From Candidatus Iainarchaeum sp. (GTDB taxonomy: Archaea > Iainarchaeota > Iainarchaeia > Iainarchaeales > JAXPJC01), in contig JACPJC010000006.1 in the NCBI GenBank assembly GCA_016187745.1, positions 32,001-96,000 of the forward strand: a DNA stretch of 64,000 nucleotides. Direction: 5' to 3'. Position numbers and translations under genes: made by a program. Shown piece by piece: positions 867-60,202 of the stretch. The notes under the pieces were generated by a model. The model saw only the letters and a program-made list of their open reading frames with translations. It did no database searches and was not told the origin of the DNA. Numbering within the stretch: the stretch's first letter is position 1; every line of letters starts with the position of its first letter.

Positions 867-984
867 GTTCATTTCTGTTCACATCCCTGCTTATTAACCT
901 GCTCATTCGGTGCATTCGGCCATAAAAAAGGTGTTTTTTGGACATTTGCCTTGTTCATTCCTGTTCAGCCCCCTGCTTATTAAC
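867..984 (+). repeat. 32-bp imperfect direct repeat (867-898, 953-984) containing GTTCA-N5-GTTCA and TTATTAA
   Basis: gttcatttctgttcacatccctgcttattaac vs gttcattcctgttcagccccctgcttattaac, 28/32 identical. Confidence 0.8.
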
Positions 985-1005
985 AGTTCATGTGCATATC
1001 TGGCT

Positions 1006-3777
1006 ATGGAAAAAGTGGTTTTTGGGCATTGGAAGACTGCAGCAACCTTTTTGTTTGTGTTGCTGGCAATTAGCTTTGCTTATGCCATAGATTTCAATAT
1101 TTTTTACATTGACGGCAATGCGGATAATGGCGGCTTGCCTGCTTTTTCATTTGTGAGAGACGGCAATCTTAGGATAGATTTGAATGTAAGGGACAATAAC
1201 TATGGTATATTACTTTTGGATTTAAATTATTCAACATCAAGATATACGTACGGAACGCCAATTGTTGATGATTTGAACCTCAACTCTTATGCAGGCTGCC
1301 AGGACAATAATTTCATTGATTCAACCCGATGCTCAGTGTATTTTGATATAGGCGCAATTGCAGACGGAAACTATTTTATAAGCGGTGCGGCAAGGGACAC
1401 TTTTGGGGGCGCAGGGTCTTTTGCCTATGATATTTCAGACAACAACTTCATGGTTGACAATACTGTTCCAATAACAACAGATGACGCAAATGCCGGATGG
1501 CAGAATTTTAATGCAAATGTAAGAATAACCTGCAATGATGGAAACGGCTCAAGCTGTACAATATGGGGAAGTGCTCTTAATTATTATAGGAAAGATACTG
1601 ATCTTTCAGCAGCGGTTTCATATGGGGCATGGCAAATATATAACTTATCCCCCATACCATTCACCGCGGACGGAAACTGGGCTTTGGACTATTACACAAT
1701 AGATAGGGCTGGAAATGCGGAAACAATAAAAACCACTTATGTGCTAATAGACAAAACATCCCCGGATATAAATATTGTCCAGCCTGCCGGAAACAGCACT
1801 TCAAGCAATCTCCTGTGGTTTGAGGTAAGCAAAGGATATGGCTCTGACATCAATGCAAATACAATAAAAGCAGACATAAATGGTGTAGCAAGCGACCTCA
1901 ATTTCTCACAACATTGTGTAGAAACAGGCGAAGGATACAAATGCTCATGGGCAGAATCAAGCCTTGCTTCGGGAAATGATTACAACTTGGCTGTTTTTGC
2001 AAAAGACAATGTTGAATGGAGAGCAACAGCACAAAGGGTATTTACATATACAATTCCTGCGCCGGGCTCGTTGCCTGACATAAACATTAACTATATTGAC
2101 GGCCATGCAGACAGTAATGCCTTGCCTACCTTCTCATATGCGAGAGATGGCTTAATCACCATAGATTTCAATGTTGCAGATGTAACACCTGCCTCGTTTA
2201 TTTTGGACATGAATTACTCCACTTCAAATGTAAATGGAACTGGCGCTGCAATAGCTGATGATTTGAACCTTGACTCCTATGCGGGATGCGATGACACAAA
2301 CTTCTTGGATTCAACGCACTGCAGCATTGATTGGAATGCAATGGGCATTGCTGACGGGAATTACTATATTCTTGTATCACTGAGAAGCAGCCCGGATACT
2401 GCAATTGAATCATCCGATAATAATTTCTTAATTGACAACACAAAACCGGTTATTGCATTTACTTTGCCCGCGTCCGGAGAAATGATCACAAATACATTTA
2501 CAGTTAAATTTGATATAAATGATTCTGGCGGAAGCGGAGTGGACGGCGATAATGTTTTCTTTGATACAAATGCCACAGATATAAATACTGCAATTGTGAT
2601 TGGAAGCGGCTCATGGGATATGAATTATATTGCTACATATACGGTCTCAAATGTTCCGGATGGTGATTATAATGTAACAATACGTGCAGTGGATAAGGCT
2701 GGAAACCAGGCTGATCAGAACACTGCATTAATTCATTATGACACAAATGCCCCAAGCGTAAGCATTGAGTCTGTTTCAACAAGTTCGGATTCTGCAACAA
2801 TAACCTATTCGGGCTTTGATTCCGGCTCTGGAATCAAGGAGTACTGGATTAGGCTTGATTATGAAGAATCCCTAAGTGGAAGCTGGGAGAGTAATGGAAC
2901 TGCAACAAGCAAAACCTATAGCGGCTTGAGCGCAGGCTCATACACCTTCTATTTAAAAGCAACTGATTATGCTGATTCAAACAGCCCTGATGCCAATACC
3001 AATTTCACTATAAGCGCCAGCAATGGAGGGAACCCCGGAGGGGGGCCTGGTGGAGGTCCAGGCGGAGGCCCCAGCCCGCCCACCCCGACTCTGCAGTGCA
3101 CTGATACAGACAACAGCGATGATTTATTCGCTTTTGGATACGCCTATGCAAAAAGAGGGAATTCGCCAATGACGCTTTTGCAGCTGGATAAGTGCTCGGA
3201 CAAGGACAACCCAAATGAAATGAAATATGATATCATAGAGGCAATATGCATACACGAGCAGCCGAAAGGCGCTCCAAGAAATTGCCCGGAGAATTATCAT
3301 TGCGGAACATCCCCACAAACCATAAATGACACAGCATATCTGCTTGCTGCATGCGTGCCTGATGAAAATGCAGAAGAGGCAGGCGAAGAGGGGCCGTTTG
3401 AAAGCTTCAGCGAGCAGGTGGCTGAAAAACTTGCAGAACTGAGGGAAAATTTAAGTGAAAAACTGGCTGAATTTATGGAAGGCAATCCTATCATAAGCGG
3501 CCTGGTTTCGCTTGTTCTGGAAAAGAGGGCAATAGCCTCGGAAAGGGAGAGGGTAATAAGGAACTTTAATGTAAGTGATGCTGAGATAGTGGAGGGGGTT
3601 GAAGAAATTGCCTCGGAAGAAATCAATTTGGAGCAGTTTGAATCTGAGCTAAAGCTTTTCTCGGGGCACTTCAAAAAGCACCTTTATCTCGCGCTGAAGG
3701 ACGGCTCAGAAGAAGAAAAAAAATTGCTTTACAAACAGATAAAAAGCTATCTAAGCGAGGTAGAAAGGGAGTCATGA
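1006..3777 (+). CDS. large secreted Ig-like repeat surface protein, D-x-N rich
   Basis: ATG 1006 followed by signal peptide (TFLFVLLAISFAYA). DNTxP and DxAGN Ig-like boundaries, internal duplicated domain, Gly/Pro linker, Cys module, charged C-terminus. Confidence 0.8.
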   Translation: MEKVVFGHWKTAATFLFVLLAISFAYAIDFNIFYIDGNADNGGLPAFSFVRDGNLRIDLNVRDNNYGILLLDLNYSTSRYTYGTPIVDDLNLNSYAGCQDNNFIDSTRCSVYFDIGAIADGNYFISGAARDTFGGAGSFAYDISDNNFMVDNTVPITTDDANAGWQNFNANVRITCNDGNGSSCTIWGSALNYYRKDTDLSAAVSYGAWQIYNLSPIPFTADGNWALDYYTIDRAGNAETIKTTYVLIDKTSPDINIVQPAGNSTSSNLLWFEVSKGYGSDINANTIKADINGVASDLNFSQHCVETGEGYKCSWAESSLASGNDYNLAVFAKDNVEWRATAQRVFTYTIPAPGSLPDININYIDGHADSNALPTFSYARDGLITIDFNVADVTPASFILDMNYSTSNVNGTGAAIADDLNLDSYAGCDDTNFLDSTHCSIDWNAMGIADGNYYILVSLRSSPDTAIESSDNNFLIDNTKPVIAFTLPASGEMITNTFTVKFDINDSGGSGVDGDNVFFDTNATDINTAIVIGSGSWDMNYIATYTVSNVPDGDYNVTIRAVDKAGNQADQNTALIHYDTNAPSVSIESVSTSSDSATITYSGFDSGSGIKEYWIRLDYEESLSGSWESNGTATSKTYSGLSAGSYTFYLKATDYADSNSPDANTNFTISASNGGNPGGGPGGGPGGGPSPPTPTLQCTDTDNSDDLFAFGYAYAKRGNSPMTLLQLDKCSDKDNPNEMKYDIIEAICIHEQPKGAPRNCPENYHCGTSPQTINDTAYLLAACVPDENAEEAGEEGPFESFSEQVAEKLAELRENLSEKLAEFMEGNPIISGLVSLVLEKRAIASERERVIRNFNVSDAEIVEGVEEIASEEINLEQFESELKLFSGHFKKHLYLALKDGSEEEKKLLYKQIKSYLSEVERES

Positions 3778-3856: not shown

Positions 3857-4711
3857 ATGAATCTGGCTAAATGCTGTTCAATCCTGTTCATAGTATTATA
3901 CATAATGGGAAGTGCACTTGCGGTTTCTGCAGATTATGATGTGAAAATATCTGAAAATGGCAATTCTCTTGTTATAATTAATATTTCAGGAAAGGACTGC
4001 TTTGATCTGCCATTGCCATTGGATGTTGCCGAGCCGAATGTAACTGGCGCCTTGTATGTATATTCAGAAAAGGGAGTTGAAGTGTGCATTGGCTCTACTG
4101 AAAGCGCGATAATTGTTTACAGGTCTGCACTGCTTACAGAGAAGACAGGGGGCTGGACATTCAAAATGGATTTGCCAGCTCTTGAAAAAGCATCTGCAAA
4201 GATCAATTTTCCGCAGAATGCCATTGTCACAAAAACAACCCCTTCTGCAAAAATTTGGCAGGCAGATGGCGCAAAATATGCAATTTACAATATCGGAAAT
4301 GCAACTTCAATAGAGGCAAAATACAAATTTGGAACTGCTGAAACTCCCGCCGCTGCAACTACCGGGTTTTACTTCCTTGCTCAAAACTATGGGCTCTACG
4401 GCATCCTGCTGCTTGTTGTAATAGCTGCTGCCCTTTCATACTTCTTTTATTTCAGCAAGAAGCTGGCAAAAATAACTCCGGGGCAGGAAAATGTTGCCAA
4501 AACCCTTACAGAGAATGAGGCAAAGGTTGTCAAAATGCTTCTTGAGAATAAAGGCAGCATTAAAAGAAACCAGCTTGAAAGGAGTTCCGAGCTTGCAAAG
4601 TCAAGCCTTGCTGCTGTGCTCTACAACCTTGAGAACAAGAATATTGTCGGGGTTGACAAGAGCAATACCGTGCATCATGTAAAACTGAGCGATTGGTTCA
4701 AAGGGCTTTAA
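3857..4711 (+). CDS. membrane-anchored winged-HTH regulator (COG2512-like)
   Basis: Signal peptide, extracellular domain, TM helix, then LTENEAKVV...RNQLERSSELAKSSLAAVLYNLENKNIV wHTH. SD-like GGGGTGAGG upstream. Confidence 0.75.
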   Translation: MNLAKCCSILFIVLYIMGSALAVSADYDVKISENGNSLVIINISGKDCFDLPLPLDVAEPNVTGALYVYSEKGVEVCIGSTESAIIVYRSALLTEKTGGWTFKMDLPALEKASAKINFPQNAIVTKTTPSAKIWQADGAKYAIYNIGNATSIEAKYKFGTAETPAAATTGFYFLAQNYGLYGILLLVVIAAALSYFFYFSKKLAKITPGQENVAKTLTENEAKVVKMLLENKGSIKRNQLERSSELAKSSLAAVLYNLENKNIVGVDKSNTVHHVKLSDWFKGL

Positions 4712-4757
4712 ACTGCTTTTTAATTATTTTGTTCTATTTTATCTATTGGTTTTTAGC

Positions 4758-6191
4758 ATGCAAACCTATAATAAAATTTCAGAGGGGATTTATGAAATTC
4801 CCAAGGATGCAGGGATGAAACTTCCCGCGCGCATTTATGCTACAGAGAAGCTGCTGAATGCAATTGAGAATGGCGCAATTCAGCAGCTGAAGAATGTTGC
4901 CTCTCTCCCTGGAGTGCAGAAATATGCAATTGGGGAAGCGGACATGCACTGGGGCTATGGGTTTCCCATTGGCGGGGTGGCGGGGATGAGTGTTGATGGG
5001 GGAGTTGTAAGCCCTGGCGGAGTTGGTTTTGACGTAAACTGCGGCGTCAGGCTGATAAAAACAAACATGGTTCTTTCTGATGTTAAGGGAAAGCTGCGCG
5101 AACTGCTGGATGTGCTTTTCAGGGAGATTCCTTCAGGATTGGGAAGCAAGGGAAAGCTGCGCCTGCAATCCGGGGAGCTGCGCGAGGCAATTGAGCAGGG
5201 CGCAAAATGGGCCGTCGGGAAGGGCTATGGGGCTGAAAAAGATTTGCAGTGCATTGAGGAATACGGCTGCATGAAGCAGGCAGATTCGGCAAAAGTCAGC
5301 GCGAGCGCGCTGCAGAGGGGCATGCCCCAATTTGGAACGCTCGGGAGCGGAAATCACTTCCTTGAAATCCAGCTTGTGGACAAGATTTTTGATGCGGAAA
5401 CCGCAAAGGCATTCGGGCTGTTTGAGGACCAAATTGTTGTGATGCTGCATACCGGGAGCAGGGGCTTCGGCCACCAGGTTGCAACGGATTATATTGCAGT
5501 AACGGACAGGGCAATGCAGAAATACGGAATTTCAGTTCCCGACAGGCAATTGGCTTGCGCGCCGATAAATTCGGATGAGGGGCAGGCCTACTTTGCGGCA
5601 ATGTGCTGCGCAGTTAATTACGCGTTCTGCAACCGCCAGGTCATGACCCATTGGATAAGGGAGAGCTTTGCAAAAGTTTTGGGAAATCCCTGGGAGGATT
5701 TGGGGATGGGGCTGCTTTATGACATCTGCCACAATGTTGCGAAACTGGAGGAGCATGAGGTTGAAGGGAAAATGAAGGAATTGCTGGTGCATAGGAAGGG
5801 CGCAACGCGCGCATTCCCTGCGGGGAGAAAGGAAAATCCTGAAATTTATGCAAAAACAGGCCATCCCGCAATAATTCCCGGGAGCATGGGAACAGCAAGC
5901 TATATCTGCGTTGGAACGCAGAAGGGATTGCAGGAAACTTTCGGAAGCGTTGCGCATGGCGCCGGGAGGGTGATGAGCAGGACTTCCGCAACAAGGCAGA
6001 GGCGGGGGGAAGAGGTGAAAAAGGCGCTTGAGGAAAAGGGCGAATTTGTAAGGGGCGCATCTGCCGAGGGATTGGCGGAGGAAGCGCCTGAGGCATACAA
6101 GGACATTGATGAGGTTGCGCTTTCAATTGAGCTGAGCGGAATCGGGAAGAAAGTCAGCAGGCATGTTCCGCTTGCGGTAATGAAGGGGTAG
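4758..6191 (+). CDS. rtcB: RNA-splicing ligase RtcB
   Basis: DMHWGYGFPIGGV, GFDVNCGVR, LGSGNHFLE, HTGSRG, HRKGATRA, HGAGR, EEAPEAYK. Confidence 0.97.
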   Translation: MQTYNKISEGIYEIPKDAGMKLPARIYATEKLLNAIENGAIQQLKNVASLPGVQKYAIGEADMHWGYGFPIGGVAGMSVDGGVVSPGGVGFDVNCGVRLIKTNMVLSDVKGKLRELLDVLFREIPSGLGSKGKLRLQSGELREAIEQGAKWAVGKGYGAEKDLQCIEEYGCMKQADSAKVSASALQRGMPQFGTLGSGNHFLEIQLVDKIFDAETAKAFGLFEDQIVVMLHTGSRGFGHQVATDYIAVTDRAMQKYGISVPDRQLACAPINSDEGQAYFAAMCCAVNYAFCNRQVMTHWIRESFAKVLGNPWEDLGMGLLYDICHNVAKLEEHEVEGKMKELLVHRKGATRAFPAGRKENPEIYAKTGHPAIIPGSMGTASYICVGTQKGLQETFGSVAHGAGRVMSRTSATRQRRGEEVKKALEEKGEFVRGASAEGLAEEAPEAYKDIDEVALSIELSGIGKKVSRHVPLAVMKG

Positions 6192-6250: not shown

Positions 6251-6499
6251 ATGACTCATTTGACAACAATCCAATTGGACAAGTCTACAAAAAATCAGCT
6301 TGACAAGTTGAAGGAATACAAAAGAGAGACCTATGACGAGGTAGTGAAAAATCTGGTTGAGGTTGCTGAAATTCTAAAAAAAGAGCCCGAATTAAAAGAA
6401 GAAGTGTTGGAAGAAATTGCTGAAGCGAGAAAACATATCAGAATGGGCAAAGGACTGACAACTAAACAGCTAATTGCTGAGCTGGGCATAAAAATATGA
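6251..6499 (+). CDS. putative antitoxin (archaeal RelB/RHH-like)
   Basis: TTIQL...LDKLK...RETYDEVV N-terminus. 4-bp overlap with the RelE-like gene. Confidence 0.75.
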   Translation: MTHLTTIQLDKSTKNQLDKLKEYKRETYDEVVKNLVEVAEILKKEPELKEEVLEEIAEARKHIRMGKGLTTKQLIAELGIKI

Positions 6500-6759
6500 C
6501 ATATTCTGTAATCTGGTCGCCCAAAAGCAAAGAGAAACTCGAGAAATTTGAAAAGGATGTTGCAGCAAGAATAATCAGGAAGGTTTCAGACATTAGTGAA
6601 AATCCTGAGCCGTATCTTATAAAACTTACTAATTCTGATGCATTTCGCTTAAGAGTCGGGGATTATAGGGTGGTCGTTGACCTGCTGAAAGACAAAAAAG
6701 AACTGCATGTAATTACTCTCGGGCACAGAAGAAACATTTACAAAGAGTTTGGTAGATAG
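6496..6759 (+). CDS. relE: RelE/ParE family toxin
   Basis: 87 aa basic protein with FRLRVGDYRVV and GHRRNIY motifs. Confidence 0.88.
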   Translation: MTYSVIWSPKSKEKLEKFEKDVAARIIRKVSDISENPEPYLIKLTNSDAFRLRVGDYRVVVDLLKDKKELHVITLGHRRNIYKEFGR

Positions 6760-7317: not shown

Positions 7318-9204
7318 ATGGCAGGATTTGGGGGAGTCAGGAAGTTTGGGCAGTATGGCGTGATTCTGCTAGTTCTGGTTCTGTTTGGCACTTACGCAAG
7401 CGCAGAGCCTTTCTGCGGGGAAGTAAGTTTTTCAGTTTATCCCATAAGCATAACCTCAGGAACATCAATTGACAGGACGTTTGCGCTGCAGAACAATTCT
7501 GCCGAGGGGTTTTACATTGATGATTTCAATGCCTATGACATTGATGCCGATTTTAATGTGATTAAATTGAGCAATGACTCTTATGCCGGCCCGAATGCAA
7601 CTGCAAGCTTATACATAAATATTTCCGCCTCTTCGGGGGTAAGCTCAAAAACCTCCAGCGCATATGCGAAAGTGAACGGGCATTTTGCCTCAGGGAAGGC
7701 TTGCGATTACAATGCGCTTGGGGAGAAGACCTTTGGAATTACAATTACAGGGGGAATTGTCGCAGTGGATGCGGAATGCACGAAAGTGAAAATTAGCGCG
7801 CATGCGGTAGGCATGGGAGAAAATTCTTCCGTTGCCGAAACATTCACCCTGCAGAACAATTCCTCGCAGAATTTCTATATTGATTCATTCATGGTTGATG
7901 AGAATTCAAATGATGTTTTTGCAATCGAGCAGGGATATGGGGATGTTGCAAATGCGAACGGGACAGCAGACCTGAGCCTGAAGGTTGAGTCCTATTCCAC
8001 AAGCGAAAACAAGACCGCAACAGCGTATGCGAAAGTCGCGGGGCATTTCACCTCCGGAACGCAGTGCAATTCAAATGCGATCGGGGAAACCGGCTTCAGC
8101 ATTTATGTTGCGGGAAGCGCAAGCACAAACTGCAATGATTTCCTGCTGTCAGTCCCTTCAGAAAAAAGGATGCTGAATTCTGCGGAAATTGGGATTGCCG
8201 CTGAAAATCCTACTCAGAGCTCAGCCACAATAACAATTTCAGGAGGCAATATCGGGGTGAATCAGAGCACCGTAAGCGTGCCTGCGGGGGAAACAATAAG
8301 CAAAACGCTCACGCTCAGCAATCTTGAGGGGGATGAGGCATGGCTTGCTTATGATGTTATATTGGAGAACTGCAATATCCCTTCAGGAATCACGCACATA
8401 GTGAAGGGCGCGGATTACGTTGAAGTTGCACATTACAATTCCGCAGTTGAGATTGAGGATGAGGCTAATGTGAAAGTGGAACTGAAAAACAATTCCCCGG
8501 ACGCAAAGCAGTTTGCGCTTGCAATAACAGGATTGCCCGCGGATTGGGAAGTGCAGTATCTGCAGGGCTCGCTGGAAGGGGAGGAAACGCGCGCAGTTGT
8601 TTTGGGGGTTAGGCAGAAGAATGCCGTTTTCGGGAATTCCTATGCCGCAAAGCTTGTCCTGAGCTATGATTCAGCGCAGGTTGAGAGGGATATTGAATTC
8701 AGCGCGATGCGCTCAGGGCAGATTGAGAATGCAAGCATACAGACAAGCGTTGTGCAGAAGGACGATGAAAAGGGCAGCTACGAGGTAAGTGTTGTAGTTG
8801 AAAATGGTTCAGCAAGCGGAATTTCAGGCGCAATAGAAATTGAAGTTCCGGGAAACTGGGAAGTGGAAGGCGCAAAGGAGATTGCTGTTCCCGCAGGAGG
8901 GGCCGCGCAGACAACACTGACTGTAATTCCTGACAAGGCGCAGAAGGCAGGGGAAATAGGAAGCGTCAGTTTTGTTGCGAGGGATGGGAGGAAACTTGAG
9001 GAATTTGTGAGCTTCACCCCAAAAGGGGTTGCGGCATCCGTAGCATTTGCGGCATTTGCAACAAATGCTGTGTTTTTCGGCTTCATTGCAATCATTGTAG
9101 TTGCAATCATCTTCGTTCACAGGGGCAGGATTTCAGGAACAAGGAGGGAAAGCGTGGAATGGCCCTATAATTGGGGGAAAGAAGCCGGAGAAAAACCTTT
9201 TTAA
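7318..9204 (+). CDS. surface glycoprotein with Ig-like domains and C-terminal TM anchor
   Basis: Signal peptide, two repeated N-terminal domains, many N-x-S/T sequons, C-terminal hydrophobic helix. Confidence 0.75.
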   Translation: MAGFGGVRKFGQYGVILLVLVLFGTYASAEPFCGEVSFSVYPISITSGTSIDRTFALQNNSAEGFYIDDFNAYDIDADFNVIKLSNDSYAGPNATASLYINISASSGVSSKTSSAYAKVNGHFASGKACDYNALGEKTFGITITGGIVAVDAECTKVKISAHAVGMGENSSVAETFTLQNNSSQNFYIDSFMVDENSNDVFAIEQGYGDVANANGTADLSLKVESYSTSENKTATAYAKVAGHFTSGTQCNSNAIGETGFSIYVAGSASTNCNDFLLSVPSEKRMLNSAEIGIAAENPTQSSATITISGGNIGVNQSTVSVPAGETISKTLTLSNLEGDEAWLAYDVILENCNIPSGITHIVKGADYVEVAHYNSAVEIEDEANVKVELKNNSPDAKQFALAITGLPADWEVQYLQGSLEGEETRAVVLGVRQKNAVFGNSYAAKLVLSYDSAQVERDIEFSAMRSGQIENASIQTSVVQKDDEKGSYEVSVVVENGSASGISGAIEIEVPGNWEVEGAKEIAVPAGGAAQTTLTVIPDKAQKAGEIGSVSFVARDGRKLEEFVSFTPKGVAASVAFAAFATNAVFFGFIAIIVVAIIFVHRGRISGTRRESVEWPYNWGKEAGEKPF

Positions 9205-53320: not shown

Positions 53321-55182
53321 TTACTTGACGCATGCACCGTCTTCGCAGCTGCCTGCGCACGCAACTAGATCTCCGCCGGTTTTTCCCTCAGAGGTGCAGT
53401 AAAACTCCATAACATTGCTCTTGTCTGGACAATAATCATCCTGGCTTCTATAGCCATCATCAAATGTCCCCGTAACAGTTCCTTTAATCGTAGTTTCTAT
53501 TCCGCCATCTGTGTCTGTGCATGCTTCTTTTAGGCATGCACCATCATTGCAGCCGTTTGCGCAGGGCACCCATGATTCATAAACCGGCGTGCTGTCTTCG
53601 CAATATCCCTCATTCAGGTAACAATTGCTTCCTGAGCAGCTATCTACAAGATAATCCTTTTTTGTAATGTCCAAGCATGTGTCATCGGCGAAAGTCTCCA
53701 GCCCATTGACTATCCCCTTAGCAACCCCTTGTACATAATAGTCCTTTCCGCCGTCGGAGTCTGTGCATGTTGCTTCTGTTACTTTCAGCATTTTTATTTT
53801 AACTGAGGTTGTTTTGTTTGCAGAAACTGACACTTTTTGCCTGGCTTCCAAATAACCCTTCTTTTTTACTGAAACTTCATATGAGCCTGTGGCTAAAGAT
53901 TTGATAGTAACTGGTGTTTTGCCTAGGCTTTCCCATTCGCCAATACCTGAGCTCCTTATATAAGCATCCGCCTTGCTCGGTGTTGAAGTGATTTTCAATT
54001 TGCCAGTGGTAACTGTTTCTTTTTTGAGTTTTGCATGCACCTTTGTAGTCTTATTTGCGGATATTTTTATTGTTTTAATATAGGAAATATAACCTCCCAG
54101 CTCAACTGCAATCTTGTAAGTGCCTACATCAACTTCCATTTCCAGCGGAGTTTTCCCGGGGCTGTTTGTTACATTGAGCCCAACATTAGTTAGCCAGACA
54201 GTTGCACCACTTGGATCAGAAGTTATTTGCAATTTGCCAAATGCTGTAGGCACTGTAGCTGCGCCTGTTGTTTTTGCTGATTTGCCCTTTGTTTTCTTTG
54301 TTGTGGTTGCCTTTGTCAGCTTTGCATGCATGGGGGTTGTTCTGTTTGCCTTAACCACAACGCTCTTGCTGTAATCCTTGTAGCCTTTCTTTTTGACCAG
54401 AACCTTGTGAGTTCCTGTTGTTTGGTCCTTAACCGTCAAGGGGGTCATGCCGGCGTATCTCTCATCAACATAAACATCCGCCTTGCTGGGGCTGGAGGTC
54501 ACTTTTATTTTGCCGTATTCCTGCTTTTTGCAAGCGCCATCATCACATCCGCTGGAGCACACATAATGCACAGAAGAAGTAAAACTTGTGTTGGAGGGGC
54601 AGAAATATTCGCGCAAAGCATCTTCTACAAATTTGCCATCAATTATTGCATCAACACAAGCATCATTAACCTGTGTTGTGTCTACTAATGCCCTGTTGCT
54701 GTCGCTGCCTGCATTTACATCATATTTACTAGTTGTAGTCGTGCCTTTTGCATAGTAATCCTGCCCACCATCGCTTTCCGAGCATTCATAGGCAGTTGAC
54801 CTGTTTGAGTCTGAAGTGTTTGAATCTGCATTTGCATCTGATTTTTGCAGTTCTGCTTTCAGCAAGCTAGTGTTATACGGTATGAAATAATCCGCCGCAT
54901 ATTCGCTTTCATAATCCTTATAGCCAGACATCTTTAATACTAATTTAAATTCAGTTGGGGCTGATGAAATGCCTATTGGCGTTTTTCCATATAGTAGAAT
55001 TCCTTATTTATGCCGAGATTTGTAAAATACACATCTGCCCCGCTTGGATTTGATGTTATATACATATATCCGTTTTCATCGCCATACATCCAGCCATTGC
55101 CGGTATCAAGTGCCTTTGCGTTAGCAGTGGATAAAAACAGGATAAGAAGCGCAAATGCAAAAATAATTTTTGTGGAATTCAT
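53321..55182 (-). pseudogene. secreted PEGA-domain and Cys-module protein split by a 1-nt frameshift near 54988
   Basis: The 55182-54973 ORF has a signal peptide and ITSNPSGA. One extra G gives MGKTPIGISSAPTEFKLVLKMSGYKDY, in frame with 54931-53321. Confidence 0.75.
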
Positions 55183-55910: not shown

Positions 55911-56126
55911 CTATATTGGGAGTTCGGGGGGCGCATCAGAGCTTGCTGCCGTTTCGCTTCCCGGAGTTGGCGGATTTGAAATCTTGCAGTCATTTGCGCA
56001 ATTTTCAACATTCTCGCCCTTGTCGCATGTGCTGTTGTTGTTGCATGCCTGCTCAACGCAGCCGCTGAGCAACAATAGCAAAACCAGCGCAACCCCGAAA
56101 ATTAAAATCGTTTTTTTCATTTTCAT
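55911..56126 (-). CDS. small Cys-rich lipoprotein
   Basis: LLSGC lipobox, CNNNSTCDKGEN..NC..DC. Confidence 0.65.
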   Translation of the reverse strand: MKMKKTILIFGVALVLLLLLSGCVEQACNNNSTCDKGENVENCANDCKISNPPTPGSETAASSDAPPELPI

Positions 56127-59100
56127 TATCCCTCTTTGTTGGTACGTTCAAGTACGCATATGCTTGCCTGGCATTTTGGCTCAGGAGCAAAACAGGTCCA
56201 GTCGTCTGATATTACTGTTGGGCAAAGAGTGTTCCTGCATTTTTCTGATAATAATTCATCCCAATACTCAGAGTATTTTTTATTTATTGCAATATTGCTT
56301 CCCCCTGAGCTGCAGCCGCAGCAGCCACCCTGAACTGAAATGCAGTCGTCATTCTCTTCGCAGGCATAAACATTGGGCTCGGGCTCAGGGTTTTCAGGCT
56401 CTTCGGGCTCATCAGGCATTGGGGGCTCAATCTCTCCTTCCCCGAGAATGCAGGATTCCTCAGCATAAACTGCCATTCCCTTGCCCAGATCGCTTTCGCT
56501 TATTTCCCTTGTAAGCGCCTTTTCCCATTTCCTGCTGTTCGCATTGTAGAAATATGCCGCCTTGAATTCGCAGTTCTCAAAGTCCGTTATTTTCTTTTTC
56601 AGCATATCTGCAAACACAGGGATGAAATTCCAGCCCTTTTCAAGGGGGGCTATAAACTCCAATGGGAATGATTTCCTGACAGTGCCTTCCGGAGAGCAGC
56701 CCTTTCCGGGATTGTAAAGCCAGATTGCCCTTGTAAATGAAGGCTGTGTTACCGGCTCAAACTTGTTTTCGGCAGTGTTGTATTCAAATATGCGCCAGTC
56801 GCTTACCTCGCAGTCAAATGCGCTCTCTCCGTCTATTTCCCCTGGCAAAGAAATGAGGTTCCAGCCCTTGTATATTTCAAGCTTTATCCTCAGGTCCGTG
56901 TTTTTCTCCGTAACAATGAATTCCGCGCTGCTGCCGCCCACTGCAATAACCTTTATCGTGAAATCCCCCACATCAACGCTTTCGCCTGCACCCAATCTGT
57001 AGGTTTCAAATGGCATTGGCGGCATTGAAATTACCTGCATTGCCGCGTGGCCTGTAATGGCTACTGATGTTGCCGCAACTTGGGTTTTCTTTACAGTTGT
57101 TTCGTAAGTTTCCTGCTCAAGGCGCTTTCCTGTTTCTTTTGCGCTTAGGAGGTAATTGCTGACGCTGAATTCAACCTGCGAGTTTGAGGAATTTATCTGC
57201 AGGATATCAATGCGCAAATTCGCTTCCAGGACATTTGCAGCCTGCTGCCCGGAAAGCTTGAAGGGCTCGTTTGTATGGACATTGATTACCGCTTCGGAGC
57301 CTTTTGTAACCAGGAATGCCGCCGCATTCCCTGATGCCTTTGTCAGCTTTATTTCAAGGCCGTAAAGGCTGAGGGTTTCGCCCTCTGTTATTGTGTAAAT
57401 TGCAACAGGCGGCCGGGATGCTGTTGCGCTTTCGGCATCCGATGCGGGCTGCGCAATTGTTTCATATTTCCAGACGCTTATTTTCGCACTGCCTGTCTTG
57501 ACAGCGTGCAGCTTTATGTTCAGCCCTTCCTCAACAACATATGCTGTTTGCTCCACTTTCAAATCAAACTGCTCATTCAGATGAGCAGTTATAATTTCTT
57601 CCCCGCCACTTTTCTTTACAATAAAAACAGCATTCCCGCTTCCTATGTCAAGAAGCCTTATGGAATAATTCCCAAGGGCGCGCTCCTCTCCCTCCCTCAA
57701 GGAAATATACTGCGGCAGCGCCTGAACGCACATCGCATTTTTAGGGCACGAGGGAACCAGCTGAACCATAATCCTTGCAACAGGCCTTGAGTCGCATCTG
57801 ACCATTTCCTTGGATTTGCCTTTTTCTGCTTTTTCTGTTGCGCATAAAATTTCTTCAAGCCCCTGCAGTGTAATATTCATTGCTATGTTCAGCGCTCTCG
57901 CTTCCTGCATCTGCCCATCATAAACATTTGCTGTCTGGTTCACAAACAGGGAGAATTTGTCGTTCAGATATGCTGTTACTTCCTTGCGCTCTTTCCCCCT
58001 CCTTACAATCAGGCTTGCGGAGTCCCTGCCAACATTTGTAAGCGTTATTTCATGGCCGAAAATTTCCTGGACATTCAGCCCCTTCCTCTGGGTATTTAAT
58101 TTTATATAATCTGTTTGTCCATTGGCTTGAGAAACTGAGAATGCTGCAGTTCCACTCTCGGCATCAAGGCCTTCAAGAGTTATTTTTAATTCAGTTTCCT
58201 TTACAAGCGCGGTCTGGTGCAGCTGCAAATTAAATCCGGAATTAAGGCTTACTGTAATCAAATCGGGCTTTTCCGCTTTTTCAACCATAATGCCTGAGAA
58301 ATGCCTTCCCTCAACCGTTGTCCAAAGGCCGGAAAGCGTGATTTTGTAATTTTCAACATATTCATAGCCGCTGAGCTTAATCCTTATTACATGCACACTT
58401 CCTGAGGCAATGCTCACTGTGAGCTGGGCGTATTCTGCCGCTTCACAAGGTGCTTTCACGCAGACAACATCCCCATAAACTACAATGTCATCAACCGTAA
58501 CTTTCATTAATTCCTCCCCGGATTCGCTGAAAACCCTTGCTGTCTGCTTTTCCTCAAGTGTGATATGCTCCCCAAGCCTTGCCTTTACTTCTTCCGGGGT
58601 TGTTTCCTTTGTTATTACAAAGCTCGCCCAATTGTCAGCAGAAATTGCCGTATTTTTTATTTCAACCCCGAAAACATTTGCAGTGCCACCTACACTGAGC
58701 ATAGTGCTTGTCCCTATGCTCCCCTGGGTTATTGAAATCTGCGCTTCAGGATTTGTGCCGGGGCATTTCTCCCCATAACTGCATTTCACAATCGGATAAT
58801 TCACGCTTGTGAGCTGGATTTCAATATTGTCAGATTCAAGGTATGCTTTTTCCCCGGCATTGAGGCTGAATTCCTCTCCTAATTTTACAACTTTCTTTTG
58901 CTCTTCGCTTACCTGCAGAGTAAATGTGTAGGAATTATTCGATTCGTCAGTTTCAGGAATCTGGTTCAGGTAATCCGCATAGATTGTTATCTTATAGGTG
59001 CCTGCCTTTGTGGCATAGCCCGTCAGAGCCGTTCCTGCGGATTGGTTGTGGCTGAGATAGAGTGAAAATTTATTGTCATATATCTGGACAGCGCCTGAGT

Positions 59101-60202
59101 CTGATTTTGCTGAAATCAGGAAAGCCTGCGAAACCGCTGCGCTGCCCTTGTTGATTATTCCCAGGTCTATGGAGAATTTTTCATTTACCTTTACACTTGA
59201 GGGCGCAGCAAGCTTGTAGATTGAAATGTCGGGCAAGCCGCCTGTTGGAACGCATGCGCCGTTGCTGCAGCCGCTTGCGCACGCAATTACATCTCCGCCG
59301 GTTTTTCCCTCAGAGGTGCAGTAAAACTCCATAACATTCGCAGTGTCTGTGCAATAGTCTGTCTGGCTCCTATATTCAACATCAAATGTCCCAGTAACGC
59401 TTCCCTTGATTGCAGTATCTTTCCCGCCATCTGTGTCTATGCATGTTGCCGATGGTGTAAAGCAGCTCCCCGAACCCTCGCAATCGGTGGTGCATATATT
59501 CCCTGAGCAGGATGAAGGAAGGCATTTCCTTGTACACGTTGAAGGGCAATTGCTATAGCGGTAGTCCTCACATCTCAACAGACTTGTTAATTTCATCGTT
59601 ATTATTACTGCGCTCCCTGAATTTGCATAAACCTTGAACAATTCTGTTTTTGCTGCGCTGTATTTGCTGCCTGGGTCTTCAGCATAAATGTAATATGTGC
59701 CGGCTGGAACTGAAGAAAACACAGAATAGCCGCTTTCCGTGCTTTGCGTTTTGACTAAAGTAATGGCGGAAGTTAAAGAGCCCGAATCGGAATAAAGCGT
59801 CAGGTTTATTTTTGCCATCAGCTGGCTGCCGTGCTCATCATAAAGCGTTAGGGAAATTTCCCCTGTTTCTATTTCGGGAATGGAAAGGCATGCGCCGGCG
59901 TTGCAGCCGTTCGGGCATTGAAGATTGCGCCCGTAGCAGCTGTTTGAGGAATTGCAGAGCTGCTCCTCAACATATGTGTTGTTTTCAGTGCATGTGTCAT
60001 AAGTCGGCCCGTAAACTACCCCGAGGGAATCAACATACTTGCAGCTTCCCGCAGTGTAAAGGTATTCGCCGCCGTCGGAGTCATTACACGTAACAATGCT
60101 CGCATTGGAATCCGCAGCGCTTGCGAGGTTGCTTAAAAGGAGCGTAAATGCAAATATCAGCACAAATCCCGCGCAAATCCGGGCAATTCTTTTTTCATGC
60201 AT
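56126..60202 (-). CDS. large secreted modular surface protein (Cys modules, CARDB-like domain, beta-rich repeats)
   Basis: Signal peptide, CxDSDGG modules, PETDESNN, repeated (L/F)..E.F.L units, KGWNLIS repeats, C-terminal Cys-rich domain. Confidence 0.8.
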   Translation of the reverse strand: MHEKRIARICAGFVLIFAFTLLLSNLASAADSNASIVTCNDSDGGEYLYTAGSCKYVDSLGVVYGPTYDTCTENNTYVEEQLCNSSNSCYGRNLQCPNGCNAGACLSIPEIETGEISLTLYDEHGSQLMAKINLTLYSDSGSLTSAITLVKTQSTESGYSVFSSVPAGTYYIYAEDPGSKYSAAKTELFKVYANSGSAVIITMKLTSLLRCEDYRYSNCPSTCTRKCLPSSCSGNICTTDCEGSGSCFTPSATCIDTDGGKDTAIKGSVTGTFDVEYRSQTDYCTDTANVMEFYCTSEGKTGGDVIACASGCSNGACVPTGGLPDISIYKLAAPSSVKVNEKFSIDLGIINKGSAAVSQAFLISAKSDSGAVQIYDNKFSLYLSHNQSAGTALTGYATKAGTYKITIYADYLNQIPETDESNNSYTFTLQVSEEQKKVVKLGEEFSLNAGEKAYLESDNIEIQLTSVNYPIVKCSYGEKCPGTNPEAQISITQGSIGTSTMLSVGGTANVFGVEIKNTAISADNWASFVITKETTPEEVKARLGEHITLEEKQTARVFSESGEELMKVTVDDIVVYGDVVCVKAPCEAAEYAQLTVSIASGSVHVIRIKLSGYEYVENYKITLSGLWTTVEGRHFSGIMVEKAEKPDLITVSLNSGFNLQLHQTALVKETELKITLEGLDAESGTAAFSVSQANGQTDYIKLNTQRKGLNVQEIFGHEITLTNVGRDSASLIVRRGKERKEVTAYLNDKFSLFVNQTANVYDGQMQEARALNIAMNITLQGLEEILCATEKAEKGKSKEMVRCDSRPVARIMVQLVPSCPKNAMCVQALPQYISLREGEERALGNYSIRLLDIGSGNAVFIVKKSGGEEIITAHLNEQFDLKVEQTAYVVEEGLNIKLHAVKTGSAKISVWKYETIAQPASDAESATASRPPVAIYTITEGETLSLYGLEIKLTKASGNAAAFLVTKGSEAVINVHTNEPFKLSGQQAANVLEANLRIDILQINSSNSQVEFSVSNYLLSAKETGKRLEQETYETTVKKTQVAATSVAITGHAAMQVISMPPMPFETYRLGAGESVDVGDFTIKVIAVGGSSAEFIVTEKNTDLRIKLEIYKGWNLISLPGEIDGESAFDCEVSDWRIFEYNTAENKFEPVTQPSFTRAIWLYNPGKGCSPEGTVRKSFPLEFIAPLEKGWNFIPVFADMLKKKITDFENCEFKAAYFYNANSRKWEKALTREISESDLGKGMAVYAEESCILGEGEIEPPMPDEPEEPENPEPEPNVYACEENDDCISVQGGCCGCSSGGSNIAINKKYSEYWDELLSEKCRNTLCPTVISDDWTCFAPEPKCQASICVLERTNKEG

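Follow-up and report, generated by a model that had tools for sequence, protein, structure and literature searches.

A D-x-N motif enriched in exported proteins of Iainarchaeota is a candidate N-glycosylation sequon

The window analysed here is a 64,000-nucleotide stretch of the genome of Candidatus Iainarchaeum sp. (assembly GCA_016187745.1, contig JACPJC010000006.1, positions 32,001 to 96,000). Close to its start lies the gene for P0001, a 923-residue protein in which the tripeptide D-x-N (Asp, any residue, Asn) is far more frequent than composition predicts. We found that D-x-N is a linear motif of two residues in a fixed order, and that it is under protein-level selection in the exported proteins of one phylum, the Iainarchaeota. 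Judged by sequence statistics, it appears to take the place that N-x-S/T holds in homologues elsewhere. We regard it as evenly balanced whether D-x-N, in the form D-x-N(-x-S/T), is the main N-glycosylation sequon of the phylum, read by a divergent AglB. The modification of the Asn, the role of AglB as the modifier and the way the Asp is recognised are all three parts that we infer.

P0001, from an archaeon of the Iainarchaeota (Diapherotrites, DPANN), is an exported surface protein of the adhesin type, built of several Ig-like domains. Its residues 28-675 (648 residues, with 68 Asp and 66 Asn) contain 36 D-x-N, where 6.9 are expected for independently and identically distributed residues. Shuffling this region 20,000 times gave a mean of 6.90 (standard deviation 2.37) and a maximum of 18, so that no shuffle reached 36. 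The hand counts of the initial annotation, an earlier reading of the letters of the window (about 36 motifs against 6-7 expected, holding about half of all Asn, with about 7 continuing as D-x-N-x-S/T), were thus accurate: 36 of the 66 Asn (55%) lie in a motif, and 7 motifs continue in this way. Control pairs are rare in the same region (N-x-D 2, D-x-D 3, D-x-x-N 5), and the C-terminal 223 residues have 1 D-x-N against 0.64 expected. Clustering of the motif had also been proposed for two other proteins of the window. The ORF (open reading frame) labelled as PEGA-type does have 5 D-x-N against 1.6 expected, all in its first 80 residues; the 1358-aa (amino acid) ORF has just 1 against 2.8 expected, and the cluster claimed for it fell away. 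A 628-aa surface protein had been offered as a control that uses ordinary N-x-S/T instead. It does contain 13 N-x-S/T, but it also has 4 D-x-N against 1.7 expected.

The enrichment extends to the exported proteins of the whole genome. In its 0.96 Mb we called 998 non-overlapping ORFs by a simple longest-ORF rule and sorted them by hydropathy into three compartment classes and an unclassified rest; both the calls and the split are crude heuristics. D-x-N occurs 456 times in the 124 secreted-like ORFs, where 187.3 are expected (ratio 2.43), 271 times against 293.6 in the 584 cytoplasmic-like ORFs (0.92), and 70 times against 59.1 in the 113 multi-pass membrane ORFs (1.18), which is the outcome favourable to the earlier proposal, as this had called for a comparison of secreted with cytoplasmic proteins. 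Among all a-x-b pairs of the secreted-like set D-x-N comes first (z 19.6), followed by T-x-T (z 5.9). Only the i,i+2 spacing of Asp and Asn is enriched, gaps of 0 and 2-5 residues giving 0.80-1.11. Related pairs stay near or below expectation (N-x-D 0.97, E-x-N 0.77, D-x-D 0.97, N-x-N 0.85, D-x-Q 0.80, D-x-S 1.01, D-x-T 0.97), and N-x-S/T as a whole is at 1.09 times (N-x-T 1.13, N-x-S 1.06). Asp and Asn codons are used in the same way within and outside the motif, and the DNA pattern GAYNNNAAY occurs 455 times in frame and 6 and 76 times in the other two frames. We therefore conclude that selection acts at the protein level; a motif of the DNA itself is excluded by the frame restriction and the normal codon use.

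The same observations bear on whether the enrichment is an artefact of composition, paralogy or DNA-level bias, an explanation that is largely refuted and that we consider scarcely credible. Paralogy does contribute. Domains D1 and D4 of P0001 are identical at 62 of 117 positions and have 7 D-x-N columns in common, and six large paralogous proteins with P0001-type domains supply 203 of the 456 motifs of the secreted-like set (49.2 expected). However, P0001 without D4 still has 27 D-x-N against 5.0 expected (maximum 14 in 10,000 shuffles), so that the internal duplication raises the count only a little, and the 118 secreted-like ORFs that have no P0001-type domain keep 253 against 138.1, with N-x-D at 1.03. 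Besides the outcome of the shuffles and the restriction to one frame with normal codon use, the recurrence of the enrichment in other genomes (2.40 in both G029 and G046) also speaks against an artefact. A comparison of P0001 with P0002, a 923-aa homologue that is 88% identical, was uninformative, as there are few changes: Asn is kept at 36 of 36 motif positions and 26 of 31 elsewhere, and Asp at 32 of 36 and 30 of 32, respectively.

For relatives we sampled whole stretches of 280-400 kb. Within the same order, the secreted-like and cytoplasmic-like ratios are 2.40 and 0.89 in G029, 1.50 and 0.91 in G015, 1.31 and 0.81 in G016, and 0.90 and 0.84 in G002 (GC content 25%). G046, from another order of the class, has 2.40 in secreted-like ORFs and 1.65 in cytoplasmic-like ORFs, the latter being too high because of a surface ORF truncated where its contig stops. 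In 25 further relatives, the surface ORFs at P0001-type matches have pooled D-x-N ratios of about 2.2-5.5, with the exception of G005, where a single ORF (517 aa) qualified and has 1 against 1.6. One family of the same order, here called f3 (G002, G033 and G096), is poor in D-x-N (148 against 165.3 in 57 secreted-like ORFs of G002) and very low in GC (24.6% in G002). This family provides a natural contrast group to the D-x-N-rich relatives.

An exhaustive HMMER search with P0001 gave 3161 homologues, and the statistics below are for the best 150 of these together with the query (151 in all). Their observed-to-expected ratio for D-x-N is bimodal, with 40 below 1.5, none at 1.5-2 and 102 at 3 or above. 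Ten clusters were looked up and four of them were named; the two named D-x-N-rich clusters are 'Candidatus Diapherotrites', and the two named D-x-N-poor ones are Aenigmatarchaeota/Natronoplasma and Thermoplasmata. The D-x-N-poor homologues are not all foreign, as a 1989-aa exported Ig-like giant of this genome (G000:C2:69979-75948) is of the poor type, being nearest to the D-x-N-poor homologues (P0091, E 8e-292). Domains related to D1 are found in 100 of the 151 homologues (92 D-x-N-rich, 1 D-x-N-poor). The domain families of D2, D5 and D6 occur in both groups; a domain of about 105 residues has 4.1-5.0 D-x-N in rich copies and 0.16-0.34 in poor copies. In each of these three families the motifs are spread over 10-13 columns of the domain, with column frequencies of 0.1-0.7. 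At these columns the poor group carries D-x-T, D-x-S, E-x-T, S-x-T, N-x-T or x-x-R, which bears out the suggestion that D-x-N sits where other lineages have a Thr- or Ser-containing tripeptide such as N-x-T.

The two groups also differ in which form of the tripeptide is enriched. D-x-N stands at 4.45 times expectation in 100 rich homologues (4545 against 1020.8) and at 0.60 in the 40 poor ones, compared with 2.43 in the secreted-like set of this genome. Given in the same order (rich, poor, this genome), the ratios are 1.17, 1.57 and 1.13 for N-x-T; 1.31, 1.62 and 1.06 for N-x-S; 1.00, 1.51 and 0.97 for D-x-T; 6.46, 0.84 and 3.38 for D-x-N-x-S/T; 3.99, 0.54 and 2.28 for D-x-N followed by another residue at +2; and 0.77, 1.66 and 0.94 for N-x-S/T preceded by a residue other than Asp. 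Since D-x-N with and without Ser/Thr is enriched in the rich homologues (6.46 and 3.99) and N-x-S/T lacking Asp is not (0.77), the reverse of the poor group, most of the signal comes from Asp at -2. Ser/Thr at +2 is present in 94 of the 456 motifs of the secreted-like set (21%) and adds a factor of about 1.5. Classical N-x-S/T without Asp at -2 is thus not selected for in the Iainarchaeota lineage, and D-x-N, which had been presented as a second sequon, looks like the main one.

In the statistics, Glu does not take the place of Asp. E-x-N is depleted in the genome (0.77) and in the D-x-N-rich homologues (0.57), with ranges by class of 0.64-0.79 and 0.43-0.61, respectively. In the 4545 homologue motifs, of which a share of about 0.22 is expected by chance, Pro at x is at 0.15 times expectation, the lowest of the 20 residues and lower than that chance share, and Pro at +1 is at 0.40 times. 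Both positions favour F, L, V, Y and I and disfavour charged residues and Pro.

The motif is independent of any one fold or secondary structure and is found in strands, loops and disordered linkers. Pfam, NCBIfam and AlphaFold place six beta-sandwich domains, D1 to D6, in residues 28-672 of P0001 (Table 1), and in the two AlphaFold models, with a mean predicted local distance difference test score (pLDDT) of 78.8 and 84.0, 12 motifs lie wholly in strands, 14 are found at strand edges and the other 10 fall outside strands. In segments very poor in hydrophobic residues, D-x-N occurs 118 times in secreted-like ORFs, where 44-47 are expected, and 46 times against 34-38 in cytoplasmic-like ORFs. 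The bearers of D-x-N that have no P0001-type domain include pilin-like proteins with class-III-type N-termini and two small lipoprotein-like ORFs, in which 5-6 D-x-N, separated by a few residues each, line a linker rich in Ala, Gly, Lys and Asn that directly follows the lipobox Cys. Both ORFs would be good candidate test substrates.

Such a distribution has to be compared with what would be expected of an unmodified structural pair, Asp(i)/Asn(i+2), on exposed strand faces and turns. We consider such a pair unlikely, and likewise the roles that might be proposed for it (solubility, protection of strand edges, hydrogen bonding between side chains). It would account for the 26 of 36 P0001 motifs that touch a beta-strand, for the preferences at x and +1, which are those of amphipathic strands, and for the location of D-x-N in preferred columns where other lineages carry D-x-T/S. 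It does not account for the strict order of the two residues (N-x-D 0.97 against D-x-N 2.43), or for the lack of D-x-S/T enrichment in the same proteins. Furthermore, linkers of low hydrophobicity are just as enriched in the motif, which is also present in the Ala/Lys/Gly-rich linkers that follow a lipobox, the same folds of other archaea manage without it, and some exported giants of the same genome avoid it.

The nearest structural neighbours of P0001 raise the question of metal binding. Foldseek, run with the first half of the protein, returned tandem Ig-like rods of Ca2+-binding giant adhesins and cadherins, the closest being SiiE (2yn5, E 3e-7), protocadherins and a region of MpIBP (5irb). 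P0001 resembles SiiE, the MpIBP extender and protocadherins as a rod of tandem Ig-like beta-sandwiches, with the Pfam families Big_3_3, Big_13 and Y_Y_Y. Asp and Asn on one face of such domains could bind Ca2+, a mineral or another ligand, with cations stiffening the rods, and a weak match to the NCBIfam 'Ca2+-stabilized repeat' NF033510 (30.2 bits, under the cut-off of 50) points in the same direction. We nevertheless consider binding of this kind very unlikely. Unlike these neighbours, P0001 contains no DxDxDG-like loop, no DxDxD and no cadherin DxNDN, and there is no enrichment of D-x-D, N-x-D or E-x-N. Two positions after the Asn of the motif, acidic residues fall below expectation (D 0.80, E 0.23), and the motif is found singly in Ala/Lys-rich linkers. 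In homologous domains from other lineages D-x-N is at only 0.60 times expectation, and it is no feature of Ca2+ adhesin-type domains outside the phylum; the objection that the motifs form ordinary Ca2+ sites conserved elsewhere therefore does not hold.

On the glycosylation reading, each D-x-N tripeptide would be a copy of a short linear motif that is positively selected in the exported proteins of the whole phylum, and these copies would serve as acceptor sites for Asn-linked glycosylation by a single oligosaccharyltransferase, AglB. Asp at -2 would be the main determinant, comparable to the 'minus-two rule' of bacterial PglB, and Ser/Thr at +2 would act as an enhancer only. We tentatively suggest, as a possibility that falls somewhat short of probable, that the Iainarchaeota have switched their acceptor code, with an AglB that reads Asp at -2, a decaying +2 pocket and rewritten surface proteins. 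The ancestral pocket for Ser/Thr would have decayed from WWDYG to WWDxG, WWNxG or WWGxG, and in the surface proteins about 3 sites in every 100 residues would have been recoded, with N-x-S/T giving way to D-x-N.

The closest known parallel is the extended sequon of Campylobacter PglB, for which an excerpt of PMC4894442 gives the rule D/E-X-N-X-S/T, where X is not Pro; PMC7226087 covers the rule as well. Both motifs have an acidic residue two positions before an Asn of exported proteins, both avoid Pro at -1 (0.15 times here) and less so at +1 (0.40 times), and Ser/Thr at +2 raises the enrichment of D-x-N. They differ in that only Asp is used here and Glu is depleted, in that about four fifths of the motifs have no Ser/Thr at +2 and are still enriched 2.28 times, and in the enzyme, which here would be an archaeal AglB. 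The canonical N-X-S/T system of AglB/STT3 is similar in having a single AglB of the STT3 family and, as putative targets, surface proteins, pilin-like proteins and linkers. The homologous Ig-like proteins of other archaea are enriched 1.57-1.66 times in N-x-S/T, whereas N-x-S/T without Asp at -2 is at just 0.94 times in this genome and 0.77 times in the D-x-N-rich homologues. The Asn-2 site of the Halobacterium salinarum S-layer protein is reported to be glycosylated with no need for Ser/Thr. This site offers an archaeal precedent for an Asn-linked glycan that is independent of the +2 hydroxyl, but it concerns one site and glycan type in one protein, unlike a motif with Asp at -2 that recurs throughout a proteome. 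In the literature, covered mostly at abstract level, we found no D-x-N sequon and no glycosylation in Iainarchaeota.

The genome encodes a single STT3/AglB (763 aa, G000:C6:16108-18396), outside the window, which matches PF02516 over the cut-off (40.7 bits) and has 11 hydrophobic segments. Its C-terminal external domain aligns around WWDYG to the AglB chains of Pyrococcus and Archaeoglobus (E 2e-6 to 2e-5), and PF22627 is annotated on its homologues, a search for which returned only 21 close relatives. Of 41 genomes, among them this one, 38 yielded an AglB. A second STT3 paralogue, as had been anticipated, is not encoded in the genome; the weak match at the end of contig C1 is antisense to an asparaginase/GatD-like ORF and is spurious. 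The candidate enzyme is the single AglB, because there is no extra paralogue.

The WWDYG motif is altered in most AglB sequences of the phylum, a change that had been anticipated for extra paralogues. WWDYG is found in the three alignments to Protein Data Bank chains that we inspected, all of them, and is near-universal. It is degenerate in 28 of the 34 Iainarchaeal sequences that could be extracted: 6 have WWDYG, 19 have WWD[E/Q/K/V/N]G (WWDEG in this genome), 6 have WWNxG and 3 have WWGxG. Tyr is lost in 27 of the 34, and Asp as well in 9. According to an excerpt of PMC7226087, the Trp and Asp of WWD form hydrogen bonds to the hydroxyl of Ser/Thr at +2, so the WWNxG and WWGxG sequences are without the Asp that binds this hydroxyl. 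The DK (DxxK)/MxxI segment reads D-F-A-L-F here, and its K position is K/R, L, Q, A, E or V in relatives. In the f3 family AglB is canonical (WWDYG, DNTN). The same excerpt reports that the acidic residue at -2 is met by an Arg (R331) in PglB. As a counterpart we considered the conserved Arg of the DNRN segment that follows WWD, which differs in the D-x-N-poor family. It is insufficient as the sole explanation, because the D-x-N-rich genomes G046 (Thr) and G017 (Gln) lack it.

The compartment and specificity evidence shows a linear motif and not the machinery that reads it. It therefore applies equally to other kinds of extracytoplasmic recognition, such as a different modification of Asn or Asp, cross-linking, proteolytic maturation, or attachment to the envelope or a host. 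We consider these quite unlikely, since no candidate enzyme tracks the trait and since the additional factor of 1.5 for Ser/Thr at +2 fits an oligosaccharyltransferase. A PMT_2-type GT-C glycosyltransferase is encoded outside the window (G000:C2:6065-7633; 27.1 bits, cut-off 26.1). As an alternative transferase it was discarded: it was found in only 12 of 40 relatives, and G029, a D-x-N-rich genome in a single contig, yielded none. A GT41 N-glycosyltransferase was looked for and not found. Cross-linking by Lys-Asn isopeptide bonds was also rejected, as the 13 available Lys cannot explain 36 motifs; the bond described in an excerpt of a paper on Sulfolobus threads (PMC9715654) is different from the Lys-Asn isopeptide considered here.

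Several points weigh against D-x-N as a glycosylation sequon read by AglB. The organism is uncultivated and a glycan on the Asn of D-x-N is putative. PglB accepts both D and E at -2, according to the excerpt of PMC4894442, and E is depleted here. About four fifths of the D-x-N are without Ser/Thr at +2, yet the AglB of this genome keeps WWD (WWDEG). The preference for hydrophobic and against charged residues at x is also what a structural role in strands predicts, and the D-x-N columns are partly conserved (0.3-0.7 in 4-5 columns per domain). Some exported giants do not follow the pattern. The 1989-aa protein of this genome has 6 D-x-N against 13.6 expected, and motif-free giants occur in relatives (0 against 4.8 in G023, beside another with 63 against 10.1, and 0 against 4.0 in G030); such proteins could reflect either motif avoidance or recent transfer. 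The relatives that were compared are non-independent, and the heuristic ORF and compartment calls weaken the compartment result. The correspondence between AglB and D-x-N is likewise imperfect. WWDYG is kept in all three genomes sampled from f3, the only D-x-N-poor family, whose D-x-N ratios are 0.90 (G002), 0.29 (G033, 1 against 3.4) and 1.05 (G096, 2 against 1.9), the last two being tiny samples of fewer than 800 residues each. It is also kept in G041, from another order, where D-x-N is ambiguous (9 against 5.1, from a few small loci only), and in G011 and G020, where the surface ORFs are nevertheless rich in D-x-N. Because the f3 clade amounts to about one independent contrast, the correlation is suggestive only. 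The initial proposal of a lineage-specific sequon read by a divergent oligosaccharyltransferase is partly supported: the statistics, the compartment, the lineage distribution and the degenerate WWDYG of AglB speak for it, and none of the outcomes that it named as refuting was observed, but a modified Asn stays an inference.

The features of P0001 and of the other proteins discussed are collected in Table 1. The start of P0001 is most likely the ATG at 1006 of an ORF that spans 910-3777 (+), and its N-terminus has a hydropathy score of 2.58. D2 matches NF047446 of NCBIfam, the OmpL47-type barrel, with 43.8 bits (cut-off 40), and D5 is over the Pfam cut-off for PF19077 (31.2 bits) and PF13750 (43 bits), as is D6 for PF07495. 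The C-terminal 228 residues gave no family match in a Pfam profile search; their acidic region is heptad-like, and there is a short (12-residue) hydrophobic stretch at 827-838.

Table 1. Coordinates of P0001, its parts and the other proteins discussed (positions in the window; G000 entries are contig positions in the same genome)
Feature	Coordinates	Strand	Remarks
P0001 gene, 923-aa surface protein	1006..3777	+	stop codon included
P0001 signal peptide, residues 1-27	1006..1086	+	hydrophobic core, ...SFAYA then IDFN; cleavage site placed by eye
P0001 D1, residues 28-148	1087..1449	+	beta-sandwich (AlphaFold), 10 D-x-N
P0001 D2, residues 149-256	1450..1773	+	Ig-like (AlphaFold), OmpL47-type barrel match, 4 D-x-N
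P0001 D3, residues 257-353	1774..2064	+	Ig-like (AlphaFold, pLDDT about 90), 4 D-x-N
P0001 D4, residues 354-484	2065..2457	+	D1 paralogue, 9 D-x-N, 7 in D1-equivalent columns
P0001 D5, residues 485-588	2458..2769	+	Big_13 / Big_3_3-type Ig-like (Pfam, AlphaFold), 7 D-x-N
P0001 D6, residues 589-672	2770..3021	+	Y_Y_Y-type Ig-like (PF07495, 36.1 bits; AlphaFold), 2 D-x-N
P0001 Gly/Pro-rich linker, residues 673-695	3022..3090	+	predicted disordered (pLDDT about 46-51), 0 D-x-N
P0001 C-terminal part, residues 696-923	3091..3774	+	6 Cys, then acidic helical region; 1 D-x-N
628-aa surface protein	7318..9204	+	
PEGA-type ORF	53321..54931	-	536 aa as called; label from the initial annotation
1358-aa ORF	56126..60202	-	
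Lipoprotein-like ORF, 189 aa	G000:C5:6842-7411	-	8 D-x-N
Lipoprotein-like ORF, 205 aa	G000:C1:188355-188972	-	8 D-x-N

Beside the P0001 gene, a 284-aa ORF (3857-4711, +) combines a signal-like N-terminus with a second hydrophobic segment; its C-terminal winged-helix region matches DUF7343 and TrmB weakly, both under the cut-off. This odd architecture resembles that of a membrane-anchored regulator. By eye, the genes that follow on the same strand appear to encode an RtcB-type RNA ligase (4746-6191), an antitoxin/RelE-ParE-type toxin pair in two small overlapping ORFs of 82 and 87 aa (6251-6759) and, from 9388, a ribosomal-protein operon (L3, L4, L23, L2 etc.). The ligase and the ribosomal operon make an ordinary genomic context for P0001.

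To our knowledge, N-x-S/T is generally regarded as the near-universal sequon of oligosaccharyltransferases. If the glycosylation reading is true, a whole phylum relying on D-x-N would demonstrate that natural evolution can change the acceptor code. D-x-N would then be the first 'minus-two' sequon known from archaea, and AglB of Iainarchaeota would be the first natural oligosaccharyltransferase that is independent of the +2 hydroxyl, as well as a natural enzyme whose new site specificity could serve glyco-engineering. This reading can be tested directly, either with synthetic peptides and recombinant AglB or by searching metaproteomes again. Even without a glycan, a two-residue motif confined to one compartment and one lineage is a clean and testable puzzle, and in the giant surface proteins it holds half of all Asn. 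With the glycan, the glycosites on DPANN surfaces, which are thought to mediate attachment to the host, would need to be predicted differently.

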